Part shown: one piece after another, positions 15,991 to 47,143 of the stretch
How the letters are laid out: each line of letters starts with the position of its first letter
Numbering within the stretch: position 1 is the first letter of the stretch
Assembly: GCA_965247425.1 (NCBI GenBank)
Contig: OZ252023.1
Span: 488,533-552,532 of the forward strand
DNA: 64,000 bases
Reading direction: 5' to 3'
Source of the DNA: Terriglobia bacterium
GTDB taxonomy: Bacteria; Acidobacteriota; Terriglobia; 20CM-2-55-15
Made by a program: the position numbers and the translations under genes
The notes under the pieces: model-generated
The model's database searches: none
What the model saw: only the letters and a program-made list of their open reading frames with translations
Told to the model about the DNA's origin: nothing

Positions 15991-16418
15991 GGGTCGGATC
16001 GCCGCGCGGTCGTCGATCCTGGGCGATCCTGGAAACGGAGTTTTTTCCCGAAAGAAAGAAAAAGAACCAAAAAGAAAGAAACGGAGGCCTGTGGAAGATG
16101 ACGCGCTGTGGAAATCCTAAAAACCAGGATTCCCACAGCGCTTGGAAAAGCCTCGCCAAGGGCGCTCGGCTTTCCCACATCTACAACACAGGCCCGACGG
16201 TAATTATCACTACTCGGAATTATTAACAGGAGGGGGTGGGCCAAATCAGACGATCAAAAGTGGGCCAGACCGGGTGGACAAACCCAGCGGGCTCGAGACG
16301 AGCTCTCATACCAGGAGATCGCACACATCCTCGGAATCACATCGGCTTCCGTGAGAGTGAAGGTTCATCGGGCGCGCATCAAACTCAACCAGTTGAGGCA
16401 AGTAAGGAGGATTGAAAA

Positions 16419-30653: not shown

Positions 30654-31391
30654 ATGGACACGTTCGACAAGGTAGACGGAGTGCGGGCCAGGGTTGTGAT
30701 GGGTGCTGCCGCAGGGATCTGCATCCTGGCGCCCTTGCTCCCTTTTGGTGGAATTATCGGTTATCCGATTCTTCTCTTGTCAACCCTGGCTCACGAGATG
30801 GGGCACGGACTGACGGCGATGCTGGTCGGCCTGGAGTTCGACTCTTTTCGCCTCTACGCTGACGGGTCCGGGGTCGCCCTGATCGGAGGCCGTGCCGGCC
30901 GGTTGAGCCTGGCGGCTACAGCGGCGGGCGGACTCATTGGGCCGGCAGTGGCGGCGGCGCTGTTGTTCTGGTTGTCCTCTCGTCCCCGCCTCGCACAGAT
31001 TGCACTGGTGGCATCCGGAGCGTTCATGCTTGCTGCCTGCGTTCTGGTCATACGCAACGCGTTTGGACTGGCCTTCGTCGGAACTGTGGGCGGAGGCCTG
31101 CTCTATGTGGGTACTCGCCTTGGGACCGGCGCCGCTCAGTTCACTGCCGCGATCCTGGCCGTGCAAATGGCACTCAGTGTTTTTGCGCGGGCGGACTATC
31201 TTTTTACCGAAACTGCGATGACCAGTGCCGGCGCGATGCCTTCCGACGTGGCGCAACTGGCAGATCTACTGTTCTTGCCGTATTGGTTCTGGGGTGTTGT
31301 CTGTGGAGCAATCTCAGTGGGTGTCCTGGTCACCGGCCTGTCCGCGTTCTGGAAACATTCCAGAGGACCGATACCGACATCCGGAAGTTAG
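30654..31391 (+). CDS. M50B-like membrane metallopeptidase
   Basis: HEMGH (HExxH), AGGLIGP, SD near the C-terminus, multiple TM segments. Confidence 0.85.
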   Translation: MDTFDKVDGVRARVVMGAAAGICILAPLLPFGGIIGYPILLLSTLAHEMGHGLTAMLVGLEFDSFRLYADGSGVALIGGRAGRLSLAATAAGGLIGPAVAAALLFWLSSRPRLAQIALVASGAFMLAACVLVIRNAFGLAFVGTVGGGLLYVGTRLGTGAAQFTAAILAVQMALSVFARADYLFTETAMTSAGAMPSDVAQLADLLFLPYWFWGVVCGAISVGVLVTGLSAFWKHSRGPIPTSGS

Positions 31392-32443
31392 ATTGAAATC
31401 CGAATGGGAGCGGGCCTGTGTGTTCCCATGCAGATGACGTGATCGCCCGCTTCGATCTTGTAAGCCCCTCCCGGGTTCAGCAGTGCCTCGTCGCCGCGTT
31501 GGACTCCCAGGACCAGGTACTCCTGTTGTGAAAGATATGCCTGCAGCTCGGAAAAGTTCCAGTTTCTCATGTGTTCAACCGGTGCGATGTAGACCTGTTG
31601 ACCAAATCTGTTGGACATCAGTTCGCTGACGACCGCCTGCGTGCCGGGATCGGAAACCTCCTGAACCAGGAAGGACGATGCAAGACCGGCCACGCAGACC
31701 ACGCTGTTGCATCCGGATCGGCGCATCAGTTCCACACGCTCGGGATCGAGGCATTCGGCGACCGTGAAGACGTCGGAGTTGATCGATTCGATCGTGAGCA
31801 CCGCTGCCAGGGTATGGTTGTCGGCGCTGACGTGGGTTATGTCGGAGGCAAGAACGATGGCATAACGTGCCTTTTCGACGCATGCGCGCCGCAGGACACT
31901 TTCCTTCGATGGCGTGCCCTTGACGAAACGGACATCCAGTTTCTGGAATTCGTTCGGCAGCTCCTCAAGGTGCTCGTCGACCAACACGATCGCGAGGCCC
32001 CGGGTCTTGGAATCCTCCCGCAGCTCCCTGACGATCTCCAGGTTCCGGTCCTTGCTCTGAAAATGGACCAGTAGTACATGTGATTCGACGCTGAGGTCTG
32101 CCATGCCTTTCAACTCCTTTGACCGCGACTCAATCAACGTGGTTGCCATCACCGACAGCAGGTAGCCCAGGATGCCGATGCCGACAAGCATTATCGGCAT
32201 GGCGACCAGGTAGCGACCGTAAGCGGTCGTTGGAAAATAGTCCCCGTATCCCACGGTGGTCATCGTAACGATTGACCACCAAACGGCATCGCTCCAGGAC
32301 AGCTCGGGGTTGACAGCACCCTCGAAATGTTTAAAACCAATCGCGCCCAGAACGACCAGGGCAAAAAACAAGAGAATTACCTTAAGGATTTCGTGTGTTT
32401 CCGGCCTGAAGCGCCGGAAGAAGTCCATGAGCAGCTTGAGCAT
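31388..32443 (-). CDS. Potassium channel with RCK (TrkA-N/C) domains
   Basis: 2 TM with TMTTVGYGD selectivity filter followed by an RCK domain. Confidence 0.93.
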   Translation of the reverse strand: MLKLLMDFFRRFRPETHEILKVILLFFALVVLGAIGFKHFEGAVNPELSWSDAVWWSIVTMTTVGYGDYFPTTAYGRYLVAMPIMLVGIGILGYLLSVMATTLIESRSKELKGMADLSVESHVLLVHFQSKDRNLEIVRELREDSKTRGLAIVLVDEHLEELPNEFQKLDVRFVKGTPSKESVLRRACVEKARYAIVLASDITHVSADNHTLAAVLTIESINSDVFTVAECLDPERVELMRRSGCNSVVCVAGLASSFLVQEVSDPGTQAVVSELMSNRFGQQVYIAPVEHMRNWNFSELQAYLSQQEYLVLGVQRGDEALLNPGGAYKIEAGDHVICMGTHRPAPIRISI

Positions 32444-32736
32444 CGTTATCGAGTCATTCCTTCACTGGTGAACGCCGCGGTTACCAGTACCGCCAGATAT
32501 CTTAGCAGCCTGTGGTCGAACTCTGTAGGGTCGCGCGCAGGGGTATTCGGGTCACAGGCGCGAAATGAGGAGCGGAACGATGCTTTGCATCGTGACCGAC
32601 GAATGACAAAGCCTGAGGCCCGAAGACCCCTGCGCCCTACGGGTTACGACGGCATGGGGCCAGCTGCGGCGTTGCCACTCTCTCCGGACATTGCCCGATG
32701 GGGAGCATCGACGTCGTCCCTGCGCCTTGCATCTAG

Positions 32737-34474
32737 CCCGCATAAATCACCGAAAGGACCAGAAAAGGCCGCCCTGTTTGGCATAAATCGTTTGTCGAGA
32801 ACGGTTCAGAAACCAAACGGAGGCGGCCCTTATGAGTACAGAGTGTAAACAAACCACGTTCGAATTTCACGGACTTCTTCAACGAAAAATGAAGGCGCGT
32901 TTCGACGGCGGCAAGATCACGTCTGACGCTGGAGTTCTGCTGCTGCGTGAAGTCGAAAAGCGGACCGGTTTGATCGATGGATTGGCGGGGTGTTTTAGCG
33001 ATCATCGCGACCAACGGTTGATCGAACACACCGTGAAGGAGCTGTTGGGACAGCGGGTCTACGGGCTGTGCCTGGGATATGAAGACCTGAACGATCACGA
33101 TCAGTTACGGACCGACCCGATGCTTGCGTTGGCGGTGGACAAAGCGGATCCGCTGGGAACGAATCGACGACAGGCCGGCGACTGGGGAAAGGCGTTGGCG
33201 GGCAAGAGCACGCTAAACCGATTGGAGTTGACCGGCGCCGAAGTCGGCGACCAGGAGCGGTACAAGAAGATCGCTATGGATGGGGACAAGATCGATCGTT
33301 GGATGGTCGATGCGTTTGTGGCAGCCCATGACAACACGGCGCCCGAAGAGATCGTTCTGGATCTGGACGCGACCGATGATCCGATCCATGGTCAACAGGA
33401 AGGCCGGTTCTTTCACGGCTACTACCGCAACTACTGCTATCTGCCCTTGTACATCTTCTGTGGAGAGCATCTGTTGTGCGCTCGGCTGCGCCCGTCCAAT
33501 ATCGATGGGGCGGCAGGATCAGTCGATGAATTGGAACGTATCGTCGGCCAGATCCGTCAGAGCTGGCCGGACGTGTCGATCATCATTCGGGCCGATTCCG
33601 GATTCTGCCGGGATGCATTACTGGACTGGTGTGAAACCCACCAGGTCGATTATGTGATGGGGTTGGCCAAGAACGACCGCCTCAAGCGAGAGATCGCTGA
33701 CCAGATGATTCAGGCTGAAGCGGAGTTTCAGACCACTGGGAAATCGGCACGAGTGTTTAAGGATTTCCTGTACCGGACTCGAAAGAGCTGGAGCCGCACT
33801 CGTCGCGTTGTTGGCAAAGCCGAGTTCCTGGCCAAGGGCGCCAATCCCCGATTCGTGGTGACCTCACTGCCACCGGAACGACTCGGAGCCCAAGCGCTCT
33901 ACGAAGATTTCTATTGCGCACGCGGCGACATGGAGAACCGGATCAAAGAACAGCAACTGGATCTATTTGCCGACCGCACCAGTGCGGGAACCATGCGCGC
34001 CAATCAGCTCCGACTGTATCTGTCCTCAGCCGCCTACATGCTTATGCAGGCGTTGCGTCGTCTCGGTCTCAAAGATACCGCGATGGCCCATGCCCAATGC
34101 GGAACCATCCGTCTGAAGCTTCTTAAGATCGGTGCGCGTATCCGCCTCACGGTCCGCAACGTCTGGATCTCGATGTCGGAGGCCTATCCCTATGCCGACG
34201 TCTTTGCTCTCATAGTGAGAAACCTGCAATCAATTCCGCTTCGTTGCTGACGACACCGAACCTTCAGATCCGAAAAACAGCGCCTCTCATCTGCCTCCCG
34301 GCGAGGCCTGCCTGCACTCGCCCATTCATGCCGATCTCCCGCCAAATGTCGCCGTGTCACAGGCTCAAAATCCGCCAATGTCCACGGCTCGCTCACTCTC
34401 AGCTCCAAGTCTCGCCGCAAATCGCTTCTCGTATCCGAACACCGATCGATTCTCCGATTGGTGATCCATCCGGG
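32737..34474 (+). mobile_element. IS1380-family element
   Basis: IR cccgcataaatcacc / ggtgatccatccggg; CTAG duplicated at 32733-36 and 34475-78. Confidence 0.92.
32832..34250 (+). CDS. IS1380 DDE transposase
   Basis: FDGGKITSDAG, LDLDATDD..HG.QE, RADSGF, YCARGDMENRIKE. Confidence 0.96.
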   Translation: MSTECKQTTFEFHGLLQRKMKARFDGGKITSDAGVLLLREVEKRTGLIDGLAGCFSDHRDQRLIEHTVKELLGQRVYGLCLGYEDLNDHDQLRTDPMLALAVDKADPLGTNRRQAGDWGKALAGKSTLNRLELTGAEVGDQERYKKIAMDGDKIDRWMVDAFVAAHDNTAPEEIVLDLDATDDPIHGQQEGRFFHGYYRNYCYLPLYIFCGEHLLCARLRPSNIDGAAGSVDELERIVGQIRQSWPDVSIIIRADSGFCRDALLDWCETHQVDYVMGLAKNDRLKREIADQMIQAEAEFQTTGKSARVFKDFLYRTRKSWSRTRRVVGKAEFLAKGANPRFVVTSLPPERLGAQALYEDFYCARGDMENRIKEQQLDLFADRTSAGTMRANQLRLYLSSAAYMLMQALRRLGLKDTAMAHAQCGTIRLKLLKIGARIRLTVRNVWISMSEAYPYADVFALIVRNLQSIPLRC

Positions 34475-34717
34475 CTAGGCCCATGGCGCTCGTAACGCGA
34501 CCCTACAGAATTCCACCACAGGCTGCTAGTCCACGTCATCCGGATTCGCATCGGTATTGTCGCCTGACCAGGTAGTAACTTTGCATCCTGGCATCCGATT
34601 CTTCACGTTATCTCTGATTCTCGTCCGGCTGAGAAATGGTGTCGCTGTGGAATATTGAGTTATTCTGGTCAGTATGCATGCCGTCGTGTTGAACCTGTTT
34701 TCTAGGGAGCTGAATCG

Positions 34718-35107
34718 TTGGACCTGGTGAACCGCGTGCTCCGACTCCTACGAGCCCAGGTCCGTCCGGACTCGAGCGAACGGGTCCGCGTCGATCCGGA
34801 CCATGGGAGCCAGAGGCACACTCGCGCTCACGTGCCCGGCCAGCGTGGCCGACAGGCCGCGACCCCCGCCCGGGACGTCGATCCAGCTCTGGCTGCGCTC
34901 TATGCCAATCTGGAGGTGGCCTATGGTTCCGACCTTGAGACTGTTCGGAAGGCACGGAACCGGCTGTTGCGGAAATATCACCCGGATCTGCATTCGAAGG
35001 ATCCGGAGAAACGAAAGACCGCCGGGGAACTGACTCGAAGGTTGAACGGTGCTTACGAAACGCTGCGGCAACGGCCCGAGAGCGAGACAAACCGACAGGA
35101 GAACTAA
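34718..35107 (+). CDS. Small J-domain (DnaJ-like) protein
   Basis: C-terminal J domain KYHPD...LNGAYE; TTG start uncertain. Confidence 0.85.
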   Translation: MDLVNRVLRLLRAQVRPDSSERVRVDPDHGSQRHTRAHVPGQRGRQAATPARDVDPALAALYANLEVAYGSDLETVRKARNRLLRKYHPDLHSKDPEKRKTAGELTRRLNGAYETLRQRPESETNRQEN

Positions 35108-35109
35108 AC

Positions 35110-35529
35110 ATGTCCGAGAACCTGGATTTGGTAAAGGGTTATCTGCTCGACATCGATATGAAGATCGTCAGCGAGAATGAGGCCGAGGAGTTGGTCGTCG
35201 TTGAGGATCAGGAGAACGGAATTCAAAACCTGATCATCGACTGCGAGCCACCGATCGTCGTCCTCGAGCAGCTCATCATGGATGTCCCCGAGGATGCCGG
35301 AGATTTCTTCAAACGCCTTTTACAGATGAACCGAACGATGGTACATGGCGCGTTTGTCCTCGACGACGAGGAAGGCACCCGCGTTCTCTTCCGCGACACG
35401 TTGCAACTGGAAAACCTGGATTGCAACGAGTTGGAAGGCTCCATTCGATCGCTGGAGCTTGCCCTGGCCGAAAACGGCTCAGAGTTGCTGGAATATAGTC
35501 ATCGAAAGTCGGGGGGAGCTGAAAAATGA
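35110..35529 (+). CDS. YbjN/CesT-like chaperone-fold protein
   Basis: Acidic 139 aa, LLQMNRTMVHGAFVLD...FRDTLQLENLD.NE; overlaps pspA start. Confidence 0.75.
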   Translation: MSENLDLVKGYLLDIDMKIVSENEAEELVVVEDQENGIQNLIIDCEPPIVVLEQLIMDVPEDAGDFFKRLLQMNRTMVHGAFVLDDEEGTRVLFRDTLQLENLDCNELEGSIRSLELALAENGSELLEYSHRKSGGAEK

Positions 35530-36227
35530 GTTTCTTTCAAAGAATTTTTAAGAACGTGCAGTCCCAGGCGCATTCCGTCGTCGACAAGCTCGAGGACCCG
35601 ATCAAGTTGAGCGAGCAGGGAATTCGCGACCTGAAGAAAGACCTGGGAGGTTCCATGCAGAGTCTGGCGCAGGTCAAAGCGATTGCGATTCGTTTCAAGA
35701 AGGATTCCGACGACCAGAAAAAGCTCGCGAAGGATTACGAGAGAAAAGCGATGCTTCTTCTCCAGAAGATGAAGAGCGGGGATCTGGATCCGGCCGACGC
35801 GGAACGTCTGGCAACCGAGGCTCTGAACAAGAAAGAGAGTGCTGTGCAACGCGCAGGCGTCTTGAAGAAGGATCACGAGCAGCAGAAAGCCATGGGGGAT
35901 CAACTCCAGGCAAAGGTGCAGACTCTGAAAGAAACGATCAGTCGTTACGAGACCGAGCTGGTGACCTTGAAAGCGCGCGCCAAGACCGCCACATCGATGC
36001 GAAAAATCAACCAGCAGTTGTCGAGCGTCGACTCCTCCAGTACGATTGCCCTGCTCGAAAGGATGAAGGACAAAGTGGTGGAGGAGGAGTCGCTTGCCGA
36101 GGCCTACGGGGAAATGGGCGACGCGAGCGTCACCCTGGATCAGGAGATAGACAGAACCCTTGCCGCGCCCAGTTCGGCCGCCACCAGCGATTCGCTGGCG
36201 GAGCTCAAGAAGAAAATGGGCATCTGA
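35526..36227 (+). CDS. pspA: PspA/IM30 (ESCRT-III-like) protein
   Basis: MSFFQRIFK amphipathic start, LEDP, long coiled coil, LKARAK.A, ERMKDKV..EE..AEA, LAELKKKMG. Confidence 0.93.
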   Translation: MSFFQRIFKNVQSQAHSVVDKLEDPIKLSEQGIRDLKKDLGGSMQSLAQVKAIAIRFKKDSDDQKKLAKDYERKAMLLLQKMKSGDLDPADAERLATEALNKKESAVQRAGVLKKDHEQQKAMGDQLQAKVQTLKETISRYETELVTLKARAKTATSMRKINQQLSSVDSSSTIALLERMKDKVVEEESLAEAYGEMGDASVTLDQEIDRTLAAPSSAATSDSLAELKKKMGI

Positions 36228-36267
36228 ACACTTCCGAACGGCCATTGCCGGGACTTGGACGCCCGAC

Positions 36268-37362
36268 CTACGAATCGTTTCCAGCCGCGGGCGCGTCGCC
36301 CTCGAGGAAGAGATAGTACCGGAGATTCGGGTTCGATCCGTCAAACTTCCAGATCCTGGCGTCGAGGATGTAGTGGGTCGCCTGCGGGACGGTGAGCAGG
36401 GGGACAAGTATGGTCAGGACCAGGGAAGGCACCTCGAAATTCAAAGCCATCCCCAGGAAAACTTCGGCGTGCTCCTGCCAGACGAAGAGCTCCCACAAGC
36501 CCTCCTCGGCGTAGGCGAGCACGAACAGGAGGCCGACGAACAGACCGACGCCTGCGGGACGATGAATCGTCCCCCGCCACGATGGGTTGCCGGCCCAGCG
36601 CCGGCGCCCGTAGAGCCACACCAGGGCCATGTACGGAACGCCGTGAGCGACAACGTTCGTCACAGTGAACGCGAAGTCGGAATCGAGAAGAGCGATCCCC
36701 ACATACCAGACGGCTGCCGTCGAGCCCACGATGCCAATCTTGCCCCAGTTCACGGTTCGCGTCTGTGCAAACACCTGTACCTGCAGGGCCGCAAACACAA
36801 GCAGCGAAGCCGCATAGAAAACAACGGCGCCAGTTGCGACCCAAACCGGAAGCTGGACGAAATCCCCTTCAATGAACCACTCGAAGTTTCGAGCCGATGG
36901 ATCCCGGTGCCACAACGCCAGCGGGTAGACCATGGCCGCGTAGATGGCGCACTTGTCCACCAGTGCGGAGCCCGCGGAGCGCTCGCCCGCGCGATGGCGG
37001 TAAACCATGACGAAACCATATTGTTGACGGACGAAATGAAAGACGGCGACGTAGGCCAGGACCCTCCAGAACACCGTGGAACCGACGCTGTACAGAGCGA
37101 CGCCTCCCAGAAAACACGCCAGAGGCGTCGCCAGGTAGAACAGTCTCCTGCGGGCGAATTCGTCAGGTTCGAAATAAGTCCGATACAGCGATGAGTAGAC
37201 ATGCGCCACGTCTACAAAGACAACGAAGATCAGCCAGCCCCAGACCGGAGTCTCCCCGGTCCGCATGGCCGGCAACGCCAGCACCAGCAGGACGGCGGCG
37301 ACCGGAGGGCCGACGATCAGGCCGAGGTCGAAACGGGCAGAGGCAATCCAGTTAGCGCGCAT
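36268..37362 (-). CDS. His-motif multi-pass membrane protein (possible membrane metalloenzyme)
   Basis: DVAHVYSSLYRTY, HFVRQQYG, HGVPY, HYILDARIW among many TM segments. Confidence 0.75.
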   Translation of the reverse strand: MRANWIASARFDLGLIVGPPVAAVLLVLALPAMRTGETPVWGWLIFVVFVDVAHVYSSLYRTYFEPDEFARRRLFYLATPLACFLGGVALYSVGSTVFWRVLAYVAVFHFVRQQYGFVMVYRHRAGERSAGSALVDKCAIYAAMVYPLALWHRDPSARNFEWFIEGDFVQLPVWVATGAVVFYAASLLVFAALQVQVFAQTRTVNWGKIGIVGSTAAVWYVGIALLDSDFAFTVTNVVAHGVPYMALVWLYGRRRWAGNPSWRGTIHRPAGVGLFVGLLFVLAYAEEGLWELFVWQEHAEVFLGMALNFEVPSLVLTILVPLLTVPQATHYILDARIWKFDGSNPNLRYYLFLEGDAPAAGNDS

Positions 37363-37454
37363 ATTGAAGCATTCTGCTCCCGGAAGGCGGTCCTGTGAAG
37401 TGGCTTCCGGAATTGTGTGAAGAAAGTTTCAAACAGGCAGGTTATCATCCAGGA

Positions 37455-39155
37455 ATGTCGTCCTGCACACGCCGAAGCTTCCTTCGCCTCTCCGCAACCA
37501 GCGGCCTCCTGGCGGTCGTCCCTTCGTGCTGGAACTCAACCACTCCGCCTCCGGGAACCTTTGACATTCCGGGGAGCATCGTTGGCGGAAGCCAGCAGAT
37601 AGGGCATCTGCTCCGCGAGCCTCGCCCCCGCGATCGGTTTTCCGAGGAGCCTGAAGCCCATACCTACGACGTTGCCATAGTCGGAGGCGGCGTTTCGGGG
37701 CTGTGCGCGGCGTGGAAGCTGAAGAAGGCCGGGCTGGACGATTTCATCCTGCTCGAACTGGAGCCCCGGCTGGGAGGAACGGCCGCGTCCGGGCGCGCGG
37801 AGAGCACCGAATTCCCCTGGGGGGCCCACTACATCAATGTTCCGCCCGCCGAAGCCGATTGCGTCAAAGAAGTCCTGTTCGACCTCGGAATAATCGAAGG
37901 TTACGATGAGAGCGGACGGCCGAGGGTTGCCGAAGAACATATCCTGCGATGGCCCGCCGAACGCCTCTTCAAGGACGGGAGATGGATTGAATGGGATCTG
38001 CTCCGCGGAGCCTCAGCCGAGGATCGGGAAACCATACTTTCCTTTGAGGACGACATGCTTTCCTGGACCCTGTACCGGGGTTTCGACGGCCGGCGCGCTT
38101 TCGTCCTCCCTCTCAGCTACAGCACCACGGACAACAGGGTTCGCGAACTCGACGAGATTTCCATGGAGACCTACGTTCGCTCCAAAGGATGGAACTCGCC
38201 GAGGTTGGACTGGATGATCAATTACGCTTGCCGGGACGATTACGGGGGCACGATGGCGACCGTGTCGGCCTGGGCCGGCATTCACTACTTCGCGTGCCGC
38301 TACTATGACGAGCGTGTCGCGAACGAGTACCCTTCCGACACCTTGACGTGGCCTGCGGGGAACGGGTTTCTCGTCGATCGCCTGGCCCAGGGCCTGGCGG
38401 ATTCCGAATGCCGGCTGGGATGCGCGGTGCTCCGGATCGACAACGACGGTCCCGTCGTACGGGTCGGTTACTTCGACACCCCCAGCCAGACCTATCGCAG
38501 TCTTTCGGCCCGAACCGTGATCTATGCCTCCAAGCTCCATCCCGCTCCGTTTGTCATCGATGGATTGCCCGGGCCCCAGGTAGCAGCCATCGAATCCTGT
38601 GAATACAGCCCATGGCTGACCGCCAGTGTCCACGTTAGCGAACTGCCCACGAACGCCGAAGTGTCGATCGCGTGGGACAACGTCCTCTACAGCAGCCAAT
38701 CCCTGGGTTACATCGTCGCGGATCATCAGACCCGGACGGAATACAAAGACAAGCCATCGGTCCTGGTTTACTATCTCCCGTTCGTTGCCGATCTCGACCT
38801 GGCCCGTCAGAAGCTGCTCGAAGAAGATCATTCCTACTGGGTCAACCTGATCATGCAGGATCTGCTCGTGGCCCATCCGGACCTGGAACGTGTCGTCACC
38901 CGCATTGACGTCTACCGGTGGGGTCACGCCATGATCCGACCGGGCCCGGGAATCATCTGGGGGCGCGAAAGCTCCCTCCGGCGGGCGCCGTTCGGGAACG
39001 TGTATTTTGCGTCTTGTGACACGACGGGGCTGCCGCTGTTCGAAGAAGCCTCTTTCTCGGGTATCCGGGCGGCCGAACAGGTCCTGGAGCGTCTTGGGAG
39101 GGTTTTCGAACCATCCATCAACGGTCTCCCCGGAGAGAAGGCGGCAGTCCTATGA
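37455..39155 (+). CDS. FAD-dependent amine-oxidase-like oxidoreductase with Tat (lipo)signal
   Basis: TRRSFL twin-arginine, LAVVPSC, IVGGGVSGL dinucleotide motif, WGAHY, DDYG, RWGHAM. Confidence 0.85.
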   Translation: MSSCTRRSFLRLSATSGLLAVVPSCWNSTTPPPGTFDIPGSIVGGSQQIGHLLREPRPRDRFSEEPEAHTYDVAIVGGGVSGLCAAWKLKKAGLDDFILLELEPRLGGTAASGRAESTEFPWGAHYINVPPAEADCVKEVLFDLGIIEGYDESGRPRVAEEHILRWPAERLFKDGRWIEWDLLRGASAEDRETILSFEDDMLSWTLYRGFDGRRAFVLPLSYSTTDNRVRELDEISMETYVRSKGWNSPRLDWMINYACRDDYGGTMATVSAWAGIHYFACRYYDERVANEYPSDTLTWPAGNGFLVDRLAQGLADSECRLGCAVLRIDNDGPVVRVGYFDTPSQTYRSLSARTVIYASKLHPAPFVIDGLPGPQVAAIESCEYSPWLTASVHVSELPTNAEVSIAWDNVLYSSQSLGYIVADHQTRTEYKDKPSVLVYYLPFVADLDLARQKLLEEDHSYWVNLIMQDLLVAHPDLERVVTRIDVYRWGHAMIRPGPGIIWGRESSLRRAPFGNVYFASCDTTGLPLFEEASFSGIRAAEQVLERLGRVFEPSINGLPGEKAAVL

Positions 39156-40744
39156 GCTTCAGCAAGACGCCTGACGACGATCTGGCGCCCACCGATCTGG
39201 AACGAAACGATCCCGGGTCCGACGTCGAAAGCATGTCGAAGCTCGGTCTGTTCCTGATACTCGCATCGGTTTTTGTCGCCGCGGCGTGCGGGATCATCTA
39301 CGAACTGCTGGTCGGAAGTATTTCCTCGTATTTCCTGGGAAACAGTGTCGAGCAATACTCCTTGACCATTGGTTTCTTTCTCTTCGCGATGGGACTGGGT
39401 TCGTGGATTTCCCGGGCTGTTCACGGCAGACTGATCCGCCGGCTGGTTGCCCTCGAAATCTGGCTGGGGTTGTTCGGGGGCCTGACCGTTCCCGCTCTGT
39501 ACCTTGCCTATGCCTATACCGATGTCTATCGGTACGTGATGCTCCTCATCATCATGATCATCGGTACGCTCATCGGGCTGGAAATTCCTCTCCTGACACG
39601 GATCCTGAGACGCCACGGATCGTTACGGACGATTCTGTCAAATGTGCTTTCGGTCGACTACGTCGGTGCCCTGGTCGCGGCTGTTCTGTTCCCGTTTTTT
39701 TGTCTGCCGGTTCTCGGAGCCTTCCATACATCACTTGTCGCCGGCGGCTTGAACGTTCTTGCCGGTTCGGGAATTCTTCTCGCCGTCTGGGGGGAACTCT
39801 CGTCCAGGGATCGGGAAAGACTTTTCCTTCAGGGCCTCCTGGTTGCGGGTGTCCTGGTCGTGTTCGCAATCCAGGCCGAGCCCCTGATGGAGCGGTGGGA
39901 AGACTCCCTCTACGAAGGCCAGGTGGTTTTCAGTACGCAGACGGAGTACCAGCAGATCGTCGTCACGCGCTGGAAAGATGAAACGCGGCTCTTTCTGAAC
40001 GGGCATCTGCAGTTCTCCTCGGTCGACGAATACCGGTATCACGAAGCGCTGGTCCACCCCGCGATGGCGTTCTCGCGAAACCGTGCGCGAGTGCTCGTCA
40101 TCGGTGGCGGAGACGGTCTCGCGGTCCGTGAAATCCTACGGTACAGCGACGTGGAAGAGATCGAACTGGTGGACCTCGACCCGGAGATGACGACTCTGGC
40201 CAGGCGCAACCTTTATTTTACGGATCTGAATCGGAACTCCTTGAGCCACCCGAAGGTCCGTGTGACGATTGAGGATGGTTTTACCTTTCTGCAGAGGGAA
40301 CACGAACCCTATTCGGTCGTGATAATCGATCTGCCGGACCCTCGGGAAGAGGACATCTCAAAACTATTCTCGGTCGACGCGTACCGGCTGATTCGGCGAC
40401 ACCTGGCTCCCGGAGGAGTGGTGCTCACACAGGCGACCAGCCCTTACTACGCCCGCCGGGCCTACTGGTGTATCGGTGAATCGATGGAAGAAGCGGGTTT
40501 CGAGGTGCTCTCTTTTCACGCTTACGTCCCTTCCTTCGGCGAGTGGGGCTTTCACCTGGGGTCTGAAACGCCGATCGATCCCCGTCGTATCCAGCTCATA
40601 CCCGGGCTGCGTTACCTGAACAAGGATTTATTCTTGTCCAGGCTCGATTTTGATGGAGACATGGCCAGGGTCGAGGTCGAAGCCAACACCCTGGAACGGC
40701 CGACTCTGGCGAGGTATTATCGCGAAGACTACGCTCGATGGTAG
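39152..40744 (+). CDS. speE: Membrane-anchored polyamine aminopropyltransferase (spermidine synthase-like)
   Basis: About 7 N-terminal TM segments; LFLNGHLQFSS.DEYRYHEALVHP, VIGGGDG, VDLDP, IIDLPDP. Confidence 0.92.
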   Translation: MSFSKTPDDDLAPTDLERNDPGSDVESMSKLGLFLILASVFVAAACGIIYELLVGSISSYFLGNSVEQYSLTIGFFLFAMGLGSWISRAVHGRLIRRLVALEIWLGLFGGLTVPALYLAYAYTDVYRYVMLLIIMIIGTLIGLEIPLLTRILRRHGSLRTILSNVLSVDYVGALVAAVLFPFFCLPVLGAFHTSLVAGGLNVLAGSGILLAVWGELSSRDRERLFLQGLLVAGVLVVFAIQAEPLMERWEDSLYEGQVVFSTQTEYQQIVVTRWKDETRLFLNGHLQFSSVDEYRYHEALVHPAMAFSRNRARVLVIGGGDGLAVREILRYSDVEEIELVDLDPEMTTLARRNLYFTDLNRNSLSHPKVRVTIEDGFTFLQREHEPYSVVIIDLPDPREEDISKLFSVDAYRLIRRHLAPGGVVLTQATSPYYARRAYWCIGESMEEAGFEVLSFHAYVPSFGEWGFHLGSETPIDPRRIQLIPGLRYLNKDLFLSRLDFDGDMARVEVEANTLERPTLARYYREDYARW

Positions 40745-40755
40745 GGAGATGAACG

Positions 40756-41301
40756 ATGGGATGGAAGAAATGGCTGGGCCGGGAGGAAGCGAAATCCGAC
40801 CCGCTGGTGGACTTCAAGCTGGGTGCCATGAAGGTCGGATACCTGGTGGACTACGATCTGAAAACCTGGGAGGTCACCGGCTACAACACCTATGACTACT
40901 CTGGATTCGAGACCGAAGAATGGGTTCTCGAAACCTCCGACAAGGTCGTCTACCTGGAGCGAGCGGACAGTGAAGGAGAGGTTGTCTGGACGCTGACGGA
41001 AAGTATTTCCATCAATGAGATCTCCGAGGATGTCGTTGAACATACCGTCCGACATCACGATCCGCCCAAAAAGTTAACCCACAACGGGCGGAGCTATAGC
41101 CTGAACGAGAGCGGTGCGGGGATGTTCCATGAAGACGCCAAAGGTCCGGGTAGAGAGTTCATCAGTTGGTCTTACTCGGACGAGTCCGGAAGAAACGTGC
41201 TGTTCGTCACGCAATACGGAGAAAGGGATTTTAAGTCCGTTGTCGGCGAATATGTGGAAGAATATCAATTCCCGAACATCCTGCCGAGTGGGAACGCGTA
41301 G
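40756..41301 (+). CDS. DUF4178-like protein
   Basis: GYLVDYDLKTWEV....YD......EW, Y...ESG.G, SW.Y.D; typical cluster context. Confidence 0.7.
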   Translation: MGWKKWLGREEAKSDPLVDFKLGAMKVGYLVDYDLKTWEVTGYNTYDYSGFETEEWVLETSDKVVYLERADSEGEVVWTLTESISINEISEDVVEHTVRHHDPPKKLTHNGRSYSLNESGAGMFHEDAKGPGREFISWSYSDESGRNVLFVTQYGERDFKSVVGEYVEEYQFPNILPSGNA

Positions 41302-41340
41302 GAACCAACGGGAACTTGAGATGACCCAAGGAGTCTAGGA

Positions 41341-42063
41341 ATGCCCGGCCAGTCAAGAGAGGAGCGAATGATCCGGGTCGTTGCGGTTGTGGCCATCATC
41401 GCGTTGGGCCTCTGGGTGTTCAGCGGCTCTCGCGCACGCCGGGACCCCATTCCGGCGTTGGTGGCCGAGCTTGCACGGTATCCCGAGTATTCGGTCATCG
41501 TGGACGATGTCAACGACGGGTTTCTACGAAACTCCGTGACGCTCCAAAGCAGCTACCGGATCACCGAACCGATCGGCGAGAACCCCGACGAGGGGGAAGC
41601 GGCCCAGTTCGAGGAACGGTTGGACACCTTTTCCATCTCCGACAGGCTGGCGACCCGCTATGAACAGGCCATCGGTATGGTCGTGGCGTCGAAGACCGCG
41701 GACGGCGTCCTGACCGGCTACGCCCAGAGCTACCCTCCCTACTATCAGCATGTGGGCCGTAGCCAATACGGGTATTTTGGTCCCGGCGGTTTCTGGATTT
41801 TTTACGGGCAGTACGCGTTTATGAGCAGGGCGTTGGGTGGGCACCGGATCGGACGTGGAGATTACGACACCTACGTCGGCATGAGGAACCGCGGTCAGTC
41901 GTATTACGGCCCTCAAACAGGAGGGCGACCCACTTTCGGCGCGAACGGTACCGCGACGGCCAGAACCCGGCCGTCTTTCTCCCAGCGGTATCAGGCCAAA
42001 CAGTCCCGTTTCCAGGCCAGAGCCCGCAGTCGGGCAGGGGCGGGGCGCAGCCTGGGAAAATGA
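41341..42063 (+). CDS. Membrane-anchored protein with Gly/Tyr/Arg-rich tail ending in GK
   Basis: N-terminal hydrophobic anchor, PPYYQHVG...YG...GGFWIFYGQYAFM, C-terminal RARSRAGAGRSLGK. Confidence 0.8.
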   Translation: MPGQSREERMIRVVAVVAIIALGLWVFSGSRARRDPIPALVAELARYPEYSVIVDDVNDGFLRNSVTLQSSYRITEPIGENPDEGEAAQFEERLDTFSISDRLATRYEQAIGMVVASKTADGVLTGYAQSYPPYYQHVGRSQYGYFGPGGFWIFYGQYAFMSRALGGHRIGRGDYDTYVGMRNRGQSYYGPQTGGRPTFGANGTATARTRPSFSQRYQAKQSRFQARARSRAGAGRSLGK

Positions 42064-42096
42064 TCTTCGATCGACGGATACAATAGGGATTTCATC

Positions 42097-43104
42097 ATGA
42101 ACAAGCGGCCGGTCATTCTCTCTGTCGTACTTCTGTTAGCCGTTCCGATATTTGCCGGACTGGGACTTACCCTCTCCGCGCAAACTGCCGCACCGCAGCC
42201 GGCACAGGTTTCTCTGACAGATAATCTCTATCTGATCGGCGAATCATTTTTTTATATCCTCGAGGCGTTTGTTCTCTTCTGGATCGCCAAGCTCGCTTAT
42301 TCGGGTCTCTATCGGCGTGTGGATCTGAATGCCGAACTCTTCACCCGGGATAACCAGGCACTCGCAGTCTCCACGGTTGCATATTATTTTGGAATCCTGA
42401 TCGCCTTCGGGGGGGCGATTTCGGGCGAATCGCAAGGTCTCAGCACGGACATCGTGACGATCGGTATCTACGGTCTTTCCGCGATCGTCCTCATGCTCCT
42501 GGCGAGTTACATGTGCGAGAAGATCCTTCTGCCTTCATTCAACAACACCAAAGAGGTGGTCGAAGATCGCAACCTCGGCGTGGGGTTTGTCGAGGCTGGT
42601 GTGTACATCGCCAACGGCCTGATCATTCTCCGGGCCACCGAAGGCGATGCGGGGGGAGCTTCTCCCGCCTCGAGCGCATTCGCCGCGGTGGGCTCCGGCA
42701 TGCTTGTCCTGCTGGCTTTCTGGCTACTCGCCCAGGTGGTGCTCGTGATCGCCGGAAGGCTGTACGAACTGGTGACCCCGTACAACTTTCTTGAAGAACT
42801 GGAGCGAGACAACGCCGCGGTAGGCCTGGCGTTTGCAGGGGCGCTCATCGGTATCGGCAACATCATCAGTCTGGCTATCGGCGGCGATTTCACCGGTTGG
42901 ATGGACAGCCTCACCTTGTTCGTCGTCGACGTCGGGTTTGGCTTCATCATGCTGTTCGTCGTCCATAAATTTACCGACATCCTGCTGGCGCCCGGCGTCA
43001 AGCTTTCCAGCGAGCAGACCCAGGAACATCCAAACATCGGCGCCGGCCTCCTCGAAGCGTTCGGCTATGTGGGCGCCTCGATCCTGATCGTCTGGACCTT
43101 CTAA
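42097..43104 (+). CDS. Duplicated DUF350 membrane protein
   Basis: Repeated helix + N.A/G.G/A motifs (DNQALAV, DRNLGVG, DNAAVGL, PNIGAG). Confidence 0.8.
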   Translation: MNKRPVILSVVLLLAVPIFAGLGLTLSAQTAAPQPAQVSLTDNLYLIGESFFYILEAFVLFWIAKLAYSGLYRRVDLNAELFTRDNQALAVSTVAYYFGILIAFGGAISGESQGLSTDIVTIGIYGLSAIVLMLLASYMCEKILLPSFNNTKEVVEDRNLGVGFVEAGVYIANGLIILRATEGDAGGASPASSAFAAVGSGMLVLLAFWLLAQVVLVIAGRLYELVTPYNFLEELERDNAAVGLAFAGALIGIGNIISLAIGGDFTGWMDSLTLFVVDVGFGFIMLFVVHKFTDILLAPGVKLSSEQTQEHPNIGAGLLEAFGYVGASILIVWTF

Positions 43105-43120
43105 CTATTCGACGCAAAGA

Positions 43121-43198
43121 CGCAGAGGCGCAGAGATCGGAGGGAGATCGTCGGACCTTTAGCCGGGAACAAGAAAACCAGATCTCTGCGCCTTTGCG
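43121..43198. repeat. 18-bp inverted repeat between convergent genes (REP-like; possible terminator)
   Basis: cgcagaggcgcagagatc ... gatctctgcgcctttgcg, 1 mismatch. Confidence 0.65.
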
Positions 43199-43211
43199 CC
43201 GAAAATCCCTC

Positions 43212-43610
43212 TTACCCTGAGTCTGCGGGAGTGCTGGCGCGAGGGGTGCGTGTCAAAGTCCGTACGTCGACTGCTAAAGGAGCTAGCTCTCGAACCAACG
43301 TGTCCATGACGCTGGAAGGGTCGAGAGGGCCGCAAGCGAAGATGTCCAGCGCCAGATATTGCAGCTCGGGATAGGTATGAACGGCGGCATGGGATTCCTC
43401 GAGGAGGACCATCCCCGTAAACCCCGCGCCACGCTCGACGAAGTGATGCTCCACGCTTTTGAGGGAGTGAAAGCCAGCCTGGTCCAGCGCTTTCTTCAGG
43501 GCACGCATGATCCGATCGCCGTCACCGAGGAGGGCCGGCGACAACCCCGTCATGTCGGCAATCAGATGCCGTCCAAGGACTTTTCCACCCGCTTCTCCAG
43601 CTTCTGCCAT
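43212..43610 (-). CDS. speD: S-adenosylmethionine decarboxylase proenzyme
   Basis: GRHLIAD, LLEESHAAVHTYPE (E-S pyruvoyl cleavage site), ALDIFACG. Confidence 0.92.
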   Translation of the reverse strand: MAEAGEAGGKVLGRHLIADMTGLSPALLGDGDRIMRALKKALDQAGFHSLKSVEHHFVERGAGFTGMVLLEESHAAVHTYPELQYLALDIFACGPLDPSSVMDTLVRELAPLAVDVRTLTRTPRASTPADSG

Positions 43611-43854: not shown

Positions 43855-44573
43855 TTAGCGAGCAGTTTCCTACTGCCGCGCCTGAACTTACGATCGAAAG
43901 CCCGGACATTCGGAAGAACGTCAACGCCTACTGACGCGCCACGCTCCAGGATCCGGATGCGCTGCCGCCGTCAAGGCTGCAGGACCAACTCCCGCTTGCT
44001 GAGGCGCTGCTTGAAGTGCCGAGTGAGAATTGCCCGCTAAACGTGCAGGAGGCACCGTCCACTGCAACCGCTCCCGAAGTCGAAAAATTGGCCGATCCCA
44101 GGGCCCCAATCGCACCGGAACCCCCTCCCGGCGCCTGAACGGTGATGGCTCCGTTGGTAACAGTAAGTCGGGTCTGGCCGCTTGTGCCTACGGTGATGCC
44201 GGCCACGGTCGCGGACCCGGAATAGGTGCCGACATAAACACCATCGAATGGCGAAGACGCAGGATCGTCAGGCGGTCCCGATCCCGAGCCGCTCACAAGG
44301 ATCGGCTTGCCACTGGTCACACCGTTGCACGTTGCCGTGACGCTGACCGCCCCTTCGTCAGGTCCCATGGTTAACACACCCGTGTTAGGGTCGATGCTGG
44401 CGACGTTGCTACCAACCGGATTTGAAACGGCGAATCGAGGCGTACATCCGACGACATTACCGTTCGTATCCTTGGCAACAGCCGAGAACTGGACCACGGT
44501 GCCGGGTGAAAGGAAGCCTGTCAGGTCGGGGTTGGAGAATACCTGGACCGTTTCTACTGGGCCTGGGACCACC

Positions 44574-44714
44574 GGCGGATCGGTGGTGGGCGGATCAGTG
44601 GTGGGTGGATCAGTTGTGGGCGGATCCGTGGTGGGTGGATCGGTGGTGGGCGGATCGGTGGTGGGTGGATCGGTGGTGGGCGGATCGGTGGTAGGCGGAT
44701 CGGTGGTGGGTGGT
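44574..44714 (-). repeat. 15-bp tandem repeat encoding (TTDPP)x9 linker
   Basis: ggat recurs every 15 bp from 44577 to 44697 with synonymous variation. Confidence 0.95.
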
Positions 44715-47143
44715 AGGTTTCGAGCCGCCTCCACGATTGGCAGACACGTCGTTTTGTCGGCAAGCAAGGCGCCCGGTCCGGTTTGCTCGATCGGGTTCGG
44801 GGCGACTCCGAGCAGCGCTCCTCGGGCCTTGTCGACTATCTCCACAAATTCGTCCCCCCACCCAAAGCCACCCAAGAGCTTTTTCGTTCCGGCGCCCGTC
44901 ACTTTATCGAGCACCAGGCTGACGGCGCCTTCAGCGGCCAGTTGCCGGATTGGAGTCACATAGTCGACGTCACACGGCTCAAAATCCTGAAACCGATCGC
45001 CAAGAATCCGATCGGTCTGGGTTTCCTGGTGATACACGTAGAGGCCTCCGGCCGCGATGCTCGCGATCAGAATGAGCGGGGCTGCGATTGTCGCAAAAGT
45101 ACCCAAAGCCACACTGCCCCCGACCAATGCGGCGATACCCAGGAGCCCGAGCAGGAATCCACTGAGGGCCGTAAAGTCCCGGACGCCGTCGAGAAGGTCC
45201 TTGCTGGATTTGTCGATACCTACGGTGAGGCCGTGCCCGAAGAGTCCGAAGCCGAGACCCGTTTCTGTTCCGATGGCGGTTTCGAGCGCGGAAGTGCCCA
45301 GCATTCTCCCCGCGTATGCCGAGAAGATCCGGTCCATCAGAGCCAGCACGTCCCTGTCGATAAACACGTCTCCATCATCCCCGCTGCCGAGAGTGACCCG
45401 TTGGACCTGGCCCGTAGCGACAAGTGCGACCTGGTCTCTCAGGGCGAGTAGATCGGCCTGGGTGCTCTCTATGGCTGCTACAACGGAACTGGCGTCGATT
45501 ATCCCGGCTGCGGCCTCCTCAAGGCGTGTCCACTGGGTCGGCGCCTGTCGGGCCAGCAACAGGAGCTGATCGAGGACCTGCAGCGTGACCTGTCCCGGCT
45601 CCCCTTCGGAGGATGGCAACTCTCCGATTAAAAAATTGTCGATCGGACCGAACAGGGCAGATCCACCGGGAAATTCCTGTCTCAAAGAAACCGAAGCCCT
45701 GCCGGAGCCGAGCGTCAGCGATTCCGGGTCGATGAAAAACGGCACAGTCACCCGAACCTCGTCTCCGTCCACGGACCGTACAGGGACATCAATGGACCGT
45801 GACGTCGCGAATTCAAATGTGGCAAACGTTGCGACGGCCGGGTCCAGCCCCTCGGCTCGTAGAACGACGATGTCTCCCGGCGTCGCCGAAAGAGACGTCA
45901 AGTTGAGGGCAGCCGGTGGGACGTCGTCGCCAAGGAGTTTGACCTCGAGGCCCGTACCCGTAGGCGTGGAAAAACTGAGGACTCCTGAGGTCGCAGCGGT
46001 ATTGCCGCCGTCAAACAGGATCAGCTGTGTCGTAAAACCGCCACCGTCCGCCAGATGTGGAAAAACCAACTCTGTGCCCACGGGCGATGCGTTCTCGTCG
46101 ACCGGACTGGTTGTGGCAATGAGAAAATCCTGCCTTTCATTGTAACGTCCGCGAAGACCCGCTACGGCAACTCCCGCAAGAGCATTCGTTGTTATTCGAA
46201 GGATTCCCTGCAATGGTTCCGGCAAGCTTTCGAAGCCATCGATCAGCTTCAGGAACTTGGCCACCTGTCCGTTCGGCAGCACACTGATCTGGGCGCCGAG
46301 TCCGGTGGGTACGCCATCAAGCGTCGTCAAGGCCAGATCCACTGTCGCTGTGGCCGCGCCCGAGTTTGAAAGCACCAGACCGCTCTGGACCGAACCGATT
46401 CCCTGGGCTTCAAAATCGCCGGATGCCTCGGCATAGAGGCGGAAAGCCTTGCCCTCGGCCACCGGAGGTACGCCGGCTTCGGTGACTGTCACGCCCTCCT
46501 GTCGGAACGAAAAGATCACGGCACCCGACGGAGTGAAATTTCCGACGCGGGGCTTGATGCTGACCCATCCGGTACGGGGAGGGAGTCCCAGTCCTCCGCT
46601 CACCAGTCTCCGGGCGCTTCTTGGTGGAATTGAATAGCCGTACGTGTTCAGCGCCACAGGTGTACTGATCGAGTTCGGCAGGCTTGAAGTCGTTACGGTA
46701 TTCGAAAACTTGATCGTGCCTTCCAACGTGAAATCCGTTGGGTTGAACAGAACGACCTGCGTGGTCCAGCCTCCGCCATCTGCAAAGTGGGGGAAGACGA
46801 TGTCCGAGGTGGTAGGCGAGGCCAGATCGGCCACGGGGAGGGTTGTCTGGGTTTGTCCACCCGGTCTGGCCCACTTTTGATCGTCTGATTTGGCCCACCC
46901 CCTCCTGTTAATAATTCCGAGTAGTGATAATTACCGTCGGGCCTGTGTTGTAGATGTGGGAAAGCCGAGCGCCCTTGGCGAGGCTTTTCCAAGCGCTGTG
47001 GGAATCCTGGTTTTTAGGATTTCCACAGCGCGTCATCTTCCACAGGCCTCCGTTTCTTTCTTTTTGGTTCTTTTTCTTTCTTTCGGGAAAAAACTCCGTT
47101 TCCAGGATCGCCCAGGATCGACGACCGCGCGGCGATCCGACCC

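Follow-up and report, generated by a model that had tools for sequence, protein, structure and literature searches.

A PspA gene cluster with a membrane-fused aminopropyltransferase and an exported oxidase in a Terriglobia bacterium: a candidate aminopropyl pathway across the membrane

Here we describe a cluster of eleven genes at positions 31388–43610 of a 64,000-nt stretch of DNA (hereafter 'the window') from a Terriglobia bacterium (contig OZ252023.1), in which a gene for the membrane remodeller PspA stands beside genes for a SpeE-like aminopropyltransferase fused to a transmembrane (TM) domain (TM-SpeE) and for an exported flavoprotein oxidase. The interval holds 12 intact genes, namely the eleven genes of the cluster and the transposase of an insertion sequence (IS) of the IS1380 family. 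The original prediction, made from the sequence alone, had listed the same eleven genes as intact between the same end points, and the families it named (RCK channel, J-domain protein, CesT/YbjN-like protein, PspA, oxidase, TM-SpeE, DUF4178, DUF350 and SpeD) were borne out by Pfam and NCBIfam scans; it did not list the intact IS1380 element between the channel and the J gene, called one membrane protein 'His-rich' and the rest of the window 'full of pseudogenes', and in these three respects needs amending. None of the cluster genes looks broken, because their lengths match those of their relatives. The genes for the channel, for a membrane protein with conserved histidines (HisTM) and for SpeD lie on the minus strand, and the cluster is therefore not one operon; the other genes lie on the plus strand, where a first unit comprises the J, CesT-like and PspA genes and a second unit the oxidase, TM-SpeE, DUF4178, GK-tailed and DUF350 genes, with gaps or overlaps of a few bases within each unit.

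The neighbours of TM-SpeE recur far beyond this genome. We seeded a survey with an alignment of 25 TM-SpeE sequences, kept the 80 best loci out of at least 590 that matched in species-representative genomes, and searched the six-frame open reading frames (ORFs) of these loci with the window proteins, by phmmer and then with iterated profiles; a gene was counted as linked where it lay within 6 kb of TM-SpeE, and separate counts were made for the subset of 41 loci that have 5 kb or more on each side. Linked to TM-SpeE were DUF350 (64/80 loci; 34/41 in the subset), SpeD (42/80; 27/41), the oxidase (41/80; 26/41), DUF4178 (36/80; 20/41), Band-7 proteins (15/80; 10/41), the conserved-His protein (15/80; 9/41), PspA (5/80; 3/41), a K+ channel (4/80; 2/41) and the J, CesT-like and GK-tailed proteins (3/80 and 1/41 each). 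The nearest TM-SpeE loci in the species representatives belong to Latescibacterota (57% identity), and three loci of that group (L001–L003 in our numbering of the surveyed loci) are colinear with the window in the order J, CesT-like, PspA, oxidase, TM-SpeE, DUF4178, GK-tailed and DUF350, the RCK channel coming last in L001 and L002. The window components are 37–61% identical to their counterparts in these three loci, with PspA and DUF350 at about 60%, apart from the channel at 30%. Thus the genes do co-occur across genomes, with DUF350, SpeD, the oxidase and DUF4178 kept widely, and the three colinear loci together with the recurrent TM-SpeE neighbours support a functional link between the genes over a haphazard assembly.

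The arrangement most often met is a tight, co-directional series of SpeD, DUF4178, a small or second DUF4178 protein, DUF350, TM-SpeE, the oxidase and, in some cases, the conserved-His protein, as in L059, where SpeD, DUF4178, a small gene, DUF350, TM-SpeE, the oxidase and HisTM are tightly packed in one direction; among Acidobacteriota a Band-7/zinc-ribbon gene often precedes the operon (e.g. L027). Linkage of DUF350 and DUF4178 to TM-SpeE persists across at least 15 phyla in the 80-locus sample. In a quick maximum-likelihood tree of 79 TM-SpeE sequences, from which two of the 80 loci were excluded for matches shorter than 400 residues, two clades of 25 and 54 rows separate (SH-aLRT 99 each): the window falls in the first, as do its Latescibacterota relatives (support 100) and all PspA-linked loci, and the second is of the SpeD–oxidase type. 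Alone among the 81 loci (the 80 and the window), the window joins the PspA type with SpeD and a conserved-His gene. The coupling to PspA proposed in the original prediction is therefore present but the exception, Band-7 proteins often standing in its place, and this interchange argues for a membrane stress, caused or met by the enzyme core, against which any scaffold can serve as a buffer.

The mobile elements of the region bear on whether the cluster could be a product of chance. The IS1380-family element (32503–34528, plus strand) encodes a 472-aa transposase (32832–34250; DDE_Tnp_1_4, 521 bits; NF033539 transpos_IS1380, 401 bits) between inverted ends of 33 nt (32503–32535 and 34496–34528) that are 94% complementary, and a palindromic CTAG at both junctions is possibly its 4-bp target duplication. 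It lies in the intergenic region between the divergent channel and J genes, about 190 bases upstream of the J start, where it interrupts no gene; it does not belong to the system, and its insertion may alter the channel and J promoters. Farther out, two 100% identical copies of an IS21-family element (IstA/IstB, 2751 nt), inverted relative to one another, occupy 13537–16287 and 46847–49597, with 30.6 kb between them that include the cluster. Because each copy has its own target duplication (CGGG and GTTGT, respectively), the two represent independent insertions; a composite transposon formed from them was rejected on the same ground, and the segment between them has apparently undergone no inversion since they inserted. 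An IS inside the interval, identical IS copies around it and three genes on the opposite strand are what juxtaposition by IS-driven rearrangement might leave behind in such an IS-rich region. However, the colinearity of the three Latescibacterota loci and the linkage counts largely refute such an origin: even the gene types on the minus strand recur beside TM-SpeE (SpeD in 42, HisTM in 15 and the channel in 4 of the 80 loci), and the target duplications of the IS21 copies indicate neither an inversion nor a composite move. We therefore regard chance juxtaposition as very improbable.

Clusters of this kind are already in the literature. Ravi et al. 2024 (mSystems, PMC11237479) describe, in their account of a 'second major group' exemplified by Shewanella oneidensis AAN56744–AAN56747, a CesT/Tir–PspA dyad encoded with a 7TM-spermine/spermidine-synthase-like protein, an 8-TM DUF350 protein, the lipoprotein Ctha_1186 and DUF4178; the same account includes a related group with a ligand-gated K+ channel and variants that lack the dyad but have Band-7, AdoMet decarboxylase and polyamine oxidase, and proposes, with reference to Li et al. 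2019, that polyamines or the 'aminopropylation of other substrates' are monitored through PspA-based membrane dynamics. By its gene content the window cluster belongs to this known comparative-genomics type, the function of which is predicted only, and the original prediction was thus correct that similar neighbourhoods were known without a demonstrated function. Like the second group as described there, the window has the CesT/Tir and PspA genes, TM-SpeE, an 8-TM DUF350 protein, DUF4178 and a membrane or lipoprotein-like protein at the matching position, so that the whole published set was found, the fifth member by position and relatives only and without the lipobox Cys. Unlike that group, the window adds a J gene in front, an exported oxidase between PspA and TM-SpeE, HisTM, SpeD and an RCK channel, has Ser for the lipobox Cys in its GK-tailed protein, and has no RHH regulator. 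With the third group (E. coli yjfIJKLMC-like, and its Band-7 variant, a form that we found in L027 and 14 other loci) it has in common, as far as that account goes, a PspA dyad or Band-7 protein, DUF350, a ligand-gated K+ channel, AdoMetDC and a polyamine oxidase, but Pfam and NCBIfam scans of the window found no ATP-grasp glutathionylspermidine-synthetase-like ligase, DUF1190 or DUF2491. Moreover, the window joins PspA with the oxidase and SpeD, which Ravi et al. list for dyad-less variants. The terms 'DnaJ', 'J-domain' and 'J domain' do not occur in the main text of that paper, and its supplements may list J-domain or oxidase neighbours (PMC11237479). In the literature searched, Ravi et al. 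2024 was the sole match for DUF4178, and DUF350 together with aminopropyltransferase returned only an unrelated proteomics paper.

The first gene of the J–CesT–PspA unit encodes a small J-domain protein (34718–35107, plus strand, 129 aa) that consists of an N-terminal amphipathic helix, a disordered linker and a C-terminal J domain with its HPD motif (PF00226, 32.9 bits against a cut-off of 27.8), and its TTG start reproduces the conserved N-terminus of the family in the homologue alignment. Y87-H88-P89-D90 is invariant among 28 aligned family members, and the family, proteins of about 120 aa in 212 representative clusters at E ≤ 1e-10, many of them aligned from residue 1, keeps the same architecture of a helix with an invariant Arg, a variable linker and the J domain. 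The second gene encodes a CesT/Tir-like, chaperone-like protein of the YbjN superfamily (35110–35529, plus strand, 139 aa), matching PF22550 (CesT_Tir_1) at 167.2 bits over profile positions 1–130 of 131 and YbjN at 27.3 bits against 22; it has 4109 relatives, the top 120 at 75–99% identity and the nearest named ones in Acidobacteria single-cell genomes (80–83% identity), and its profile retrieved nothing relevant from PDB sequences at E ≤ 1. The start of the third gene overlaps the CesT-like stop by 4 bases and opens a PspA/IM30 (ESCRT-III-like) protein (35526–36227, plus strand, 233 aa; PF04012, 151.9 bits against 33.9, residues 3–230), which aligns with solved PspA and Vipp1 chains (8qbw, 6zvr, 7o3w and others) at E values of 5e-18 to 2e-16, from query residue 1 to 203/231. 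A gene of the CesT/Tir type directly upstream of a PspA homologue is also found in Pseudomonas aeruginosa, where BacA (YjfI/DUF2170, CesT/Tir fold, crystal structure) and BacB (PspA homologue) form, in the account given by PMC10948618, the only such dyad with phenotypes, in biofilm, rhamnolipid and virulence. Unlike the window protein, which is of the CesT_Tir_1/YbjN type, BacA is a DUF2170 protein, and the bac operon is described by its authors as lacking a spermidine-synthase-like gene (PMC10948618).

The J protein and PspA resemble one another at their N-termini, a similarity that is statistical, not structural. A profile made from the first 17 columns of the J family and tested on Met-initiated segments scored the PspA N-terminus of the window at 19.1 bits, first among the 1159 such segments of the window and followed by one at 4.5 bits. 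Against the background of the surveyed loci, 1 of 17302 segments reached 19.1 bits; the top matches were the N-termini of the PspA of L037 and of the DUF4178 proteins of L032 and L037, and the PspA N-termini of L001–L003 lay within the top 16, while that of the L069 PspA did not match the profile. Both helices of the window are amphipathic, with a hydrophobic moment of 0.75 for the J protein (reached by 31 of 2000 shuffles) and of 0.56 for PspA (14 of 2000). The two Firmicutes DUF4178 proteins that start with this PspA-like motif lie at 3282–3809 in L032 (21.3 bits) and at 7937–8467 in L037 (16.6 bits).

TM-SpeE (39152–40744, plus strand, 530 aa; NF002956/PRK03612) combines a domain of about 7 TM segments, seven hydrophobic segments being counted by a hydropathy script, with a SpeE-like aminopropyltransferase. 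It matches NF002956, the NCBIfam equivalog 'polyamine aminopropyltransferase', at 613.5 bits against a cut-off of 472 over residues 27–529, and falls under the 40-bit cut-off of NF037959, 'fused MFS/spermidine synthase' (37.7 bits). GGGDG (G318–G322) and DLPDP (D393, D396–P397), aligned to 7xif, are invariant in the 25 TM-SpeE sequences, VDLD and EDGF are also conserved, and the catalytic domain is closest to 7xif, 1uir/3anx and 6bq2, structures of agmatine/long-polyamine and thermospermine synthases. The TM part of the same alignment has dozens of invariant residues, including the charged E102, E144, R150 and D169. From these features TM-SpeE looks like an active aminopropyltransferase, and its membrane domain looks like more than a mere anchor. 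In work from 2019, Li et al. reportedly described membrane-protein/SpdSyn fusions occurring with AdoMetDC and DUF350 that failed to rescue an E. coli speE mutant and whose hosts lack spermidine, and they are said to have proposed an acceptor other than putrescine. The window likewise pairs a TM-fused aminopropyltransferase with SpeD and DUF350, but on its two NCBIfam scores its fusion may be of another lineage. Plasmids and megaplasmids also carry relatives of TM-SpeE: 188 such records were found, of which 120 are from Ralstonia, the listed records showing 41–45% identity and mostly full-length matches, and a record from Ensifer that was inspected carries no annotation; the same plasmid collection held no DNA match to the window and no match to HisTM.

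SpeD (43212–43610, minus strand, 132 aa), convergent with the DUF350 gene, is a class 1b pyruvoyl S-adenosylmethionine (SAM) decarboxylase by its scores with PF02675 (AdoMet_dc, 100 bits) and TIGR03330 (97.3 bits against 75.65). Aligned to the Thermotoga maritima AdoMetDC 1tlu it keeps the ESH...HT.PE...CG stretch, with EESH for the SESH of 1tlu; arginine and ornithine decarboxylases derived from SpeD exist (PMC10407285), and the window protein is assigned at the level of the family. The two enzymes could be engaged in ordinary polyamine metabolism: the fusion would supply the cell, or an export route, with spermidine or a longer polyamine, the oxidase would serve catabolism or back-conversion, and PspA would be a loose stress-island associate. 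The equivalog score of TM-SpeE, the closeness of its catalytic domain to solved polyamine, agmatine and thermospermine aminopropyltransferases, and the SpeD score above the AdoMetDC cut-off are all consistent with that explanation, which nevertheless leaves us doubtful: the TM domain is highly conserved, the linkage to DUF350 and DUF4178 persists in at least 15 phyla, the fusions of Li et al. reportedly do not stand in for SpeE in E. coli, the oxidase appears to be exported, and Ravi et al. speak in their proposal of the 'aminopropylation of other substrates' (PMC11237479).

The oxidase, a member of the flavin amine-oxidase superfamily (37455–39155, plus strand; the ORF opens with GTG at 37395, and ATG at 37455 is the probable start), matches PF01593 at 73.4 bits against 19.8 over residues 100–564 and has the GxGxxG motif for binding flavin adenine dinucleotide (FAD), with G77, G79 and G82 invariant in the alignment. 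Its N-terminus reads TRRSFLRL, followed by a hydrophobic stretch and then a Cys, which is a signal of the twin-arginine translocation (Tat) type; R6 and R7 are invariant in 22 of 22 aligned homologues, and a looser RR motif, often with a Cys after it, occurs in 36 of the 43 oxidase ORFs of the surveyed loci. The invariance of this signal argues that the oxidase would be folded before export and would act on the outer face of the membrane, and with the donor, decarboxylated SAM, in the cytoplasm, transfer and oxidation would take place on opposite faces.

This topology bears directly on the original prediction, which had read the enzymes as a 'write/erase' system coupled to PspA repair and K+ flux. 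Taken as a reversible mark, an aminopropyl group would be attached by SpeD and SpeE to some membrane component and taken off again by the oxidase; the charge of the membrane would be adjusted in this way, and the repair and the flux would be the outputs. Such a system draws on the same linkage data as the one-way pathway that we favour (below); the superfamily of the oxidase includes polyamine oxidases that cleave at secondary amines, and the monitoring of 'aminopropylation of other substrates' is part of the proposal of Ravi et al. (PMC11237479). However, the Tat signal would place writer and eraser on opposite faces of the membrane, and the oxidase is co-directional with TM-SpeE and tightly packed with it in most loci, which for an antagonistic pair would imply a SAM-consuming futile cycle unless flipping were regulated; Pfam and NCBIfam scans revealed no regulator in the cluster. 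Co-direction and tight packing are at least as easily reconciled with one-way traffic from inside to outside as with two opposed activities. We thus consider a write/erase pair unlikely, and of that interpretation it is the functional linkage of the genes that stands.

HisTM (36268–37362, minus strand, 364 aa) is a multi-pass membrane protein of an unnamed family with at least 4499 relatives; it has no Pfam match even at E ≤ 10 and no NCBIfam match, and its profile retrieved from PDB sequences only spurious terpene synthase matches (E ≥ 0.15). With 8 His in 364 residues its composition is only 2.2% His, so that 'conserved-His' rather than 'His-rich' is the right term: five His are invariant and two nearly so in 34 sequences, and several Asp, Glu, Arg and Trp residues are invariant too. 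By the hydropathy script and manual reading the conserved His are placed close to the ends of helices, at both faces of the membrane, which would fit a haem or metal site. HisTM is encoded after the oxidase in 12 of the 28 loci whose flanks are long enough. A relationship to TM-SpeE was rejected (hhalign against the TM-SpeE alignment, probability 0.2%), and blast found no internal repeat (E ≥ 9.9). In one Corallococcus locus (L036, 15708–20136), an SDR epimerase gene and an OtsA–OtsB trehalose synthase fusion surround the conserved-His gene.

Four further proteins complete the cluster. The K+ channel (31388–32443, minus strand, 351 aa), divergent from the J–CesT–PspA unit, has two TM segments, a TVGYGD filter in its translation and a cytoplasmic RCK domain (Ion_trans_2, 61 bits; TrkA_N, 42 bits; Slo-like_RCK, 40 bits). 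Its coupling to the enzymes, also part of the original prediction, is seen in the four linked loci, but at only about 30% identity. In L037 (Firmicutes) a channel of a different family (Ion_trans) occupies the position after TM-SpeE, which speaks less for an accident of inheritance than for a functional connection with the flux of cations. In L001 (14729–16475) a weak PilZ-like ORF and an MprF-type LPG_synthase_TM gene come after the channel. The DUF4178 protein (40756–41301, plus strand, 181 aa; PF13785, 69 bits) has no TM segment. The GK-tailed protein (41341–42063, plus strand, 240 aa), membrane-anchored, with a conserved aromatic/Gly core and a basic tail rich in G, Y, R and K, has no Pfam match and is 41–48% identical to the gene at the same position in L001–L003; these relatives have a lipobox-like L-x-x-C after the signal where the window copy has Ser for Cys, and the latter is probably held by an uncleaved signal anchor, not by lipid. 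On the basis of position and relatives only, it is probably the 'Ctha_1186' lipoprotein of the published operon; it showed no similarity to the C-terminal half of the long DUF4178 protein of L059. Finally, the DUF350 protein (42097–43104, plus strand, 335 aa) contains two DUF350 stretches (PF03994, 157 bits) and nine hydrophobic segments by the hydropathy script, read as a signal-like segment and 8 TM segments.

Outside the cluster the window is IS-rich, not gene-poor. Forty-six non-overlapping ORFs of at least 100 aa cover 91.6% of it and most of the large ones have complete domain matches, so that 'full of pseudogenes' was an overstatement for a region with many IS and a few broken genes. 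The latter are a helicase/nuclease (17012–22599, minus strand; DUF4011-AAA_11 / AAA_12-MTES_1575 restriction endonuclease-DUF3320), split between two ORFs (1287 and 585 aa) that overlap, and apparently a frameshifted pseudogene, and a Ser/Thr protein kinase ORF (23466–25040, minus strand), probably truncated at its N-terminus, with a Pfam match that begins at profile position 105. Other genes are an IS91-type transposase and a tyrosine recombinase (318–2416), a 2297-aa surface protein with 19 Big_9/cadherin-like repeats (2629–9522), a VgrG-like (Phage_base_V/GPD) ORF (10169–11962) and a 968-aa protein of no family with a run of PPTTD repeats (43928–46834, minus strand), whose start lies 12 bases from the edge of the right-hand IS21 copy. 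Promoter and terminator scans gave signals no better than shuffles, and Rfam and tRNA scans of the window gave no match. Elsewhere, a TIR-NACHT STAND protein is encoded after the oxidase in a Bryobacterales locus (L027, 12980–15331).

The helicase/restriction endonuclease pseudogene and the VgrG-like gene in the window, and the TIR-NACHT gene in L027, might recall an anti-phage or abortive-infection membrane system, and the original prediction had proposed challenge by phage. However, the core of the cluster is metabolic, and a PADLOC scan of 14 proteins returned nothing relevant, only fold-level matches of two enzymes; we hold a role in defence to be highly unlikely.

The reading that we favour, and which we hold with about as much doubt as belief, is that the genes specify an aminopropyl pathway which is embedded in the membrane, runs one way and has a membrane-protecting module of its own. 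In such a pathway SpeD, as assigned by family, would make decarboxylated SAM in the cytoplasm, and on the inner side of the membrane TM-SpeE would transfer the aminopropyl group to an amine acceptor; the conserved 7-TM domain, probably with DUF350, would pass or present the product to the outer face, where the exported flavoprotein would oxidize it, with HisTM as electron acceptor or second enzyme. As acceptor, bulk putrescine of the cytosol seems to us less likely than an amine associated with the envelope, either the head group of a lipid or a long polyamine that is exported. The cytoplasmic DUF4178 protein and the anchored, outward-facing GK-tailed protein would be non-catalytic accessory subunits, and the RCK channel would move K+ to balance charge or osmolarity. 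PspA would form an ESCRT-III-like coat that protects the membrane around this enzyme machine, and the CesT-like protein would keep PspA competent for assembly. The J protein would be targeted to the site of PspA by its PspA-like N-terminal helix and would recruit DnaK to assemble and disassemble PspA, by analogy with the HSP70B–CDJ2–CGE1 chaperones of Chlamydomonas, which assemble and disassemble VIPP1 (PMC12798727; also bioRxiv 10.1101/2025.08.22.671721). As described there, that system likewise has a dedicated J co-chaperone that hands a PspA/IM30-family polymer to Hsp70, a role which for the window is proposed from sequence; unlike CDJ2, the window protein is a bacterial J protein of about 120 aa, encoded in a pspA operon and bearing a PspA-like N-terminal helix.

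Several observations weigh against this membrane-embedded pathway. PspA linkage is rare in the survey, and the J, CesT-like and GK-tailed genes were found near TM-SpeE only in three loci, all of one clade; SpeD and HisTM are absent within 10 kb in the Latescibacterota loci, and the window channel is only 30% identical to the one that ends the L001 cluster. The 80-locus sample, biased to the best tblastn scores, is not a random or a complete one. Three genes of the window cluster (HisTM, SpeD and channel) lie on the opposite strand, and an IS lies within the promoter region of the channel and J genes. Because TM-SpeE matches the equivalog and keeps the canonical residues, plain spermidine or thermospermine synthesis would be compatible with its sequence. 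Solved amine oxidases, polyamine oxidase, spermine oxidase and SpdH among them, match the oxidase only over about 60 N-terminal residues, the FAD-binding segment, in both single-sequence and profile searches; 'amine' is therefore a superfamily-level label, and similarity to a polyamine oxidase proper does not extend beyond that segment. TM counts and sidedness come from a simple hydropathy script, the similarity of the J and PspA helices could be convergent amphipathic design, and operons of this type are, according to PMC11237479 and PMC10948618, without experimental data.

A bolder reading, which we offer tentatively and think improbable in its entirety, is that the J protein is a dedicated bacterial 'PspA disassemblase adaptor', which carries a copy of the PspA helix and recruits the DnaK motor, that the neighbouring enzymes carry out aminopropylation and oxidation of an envelope amine across the membrane, possibly to a reactive aminoaldehyde, rather than polyamine metabolism, and that HisTM represents a new membrane redox or hydrolytic family. 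If it were true, the J protein would go where PspA goes, be it stressed membrane, PspA polymer or the CesT-like protein, and DnaK would be the ATP-driven motor that an ESCRT-III-like PspA otherwise lacks.

As a cluster of this kind is already in the literature, the value of the present analysis lies in a sharper, testable model and not in a new system; what is new here are the Tat-exported oxidase, the unnamed conserved-His family and the J family of about 120 aa with its PspA-like helix. The model bears on two questions. The first is what thousands of bacterial AdoMetDC and membrane-fused SpeE-like genes are for, if not for spermidine synthesis, and here the exported flavoprotein and the HisTM family would mark the product as one that is handled on the outer face of the membrane. 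The second is how PspA polymers come apart without an ATPase of the Vps4 type, and here an operon-encoded J protein with a PspA-like targeting helix would point to DnaK.

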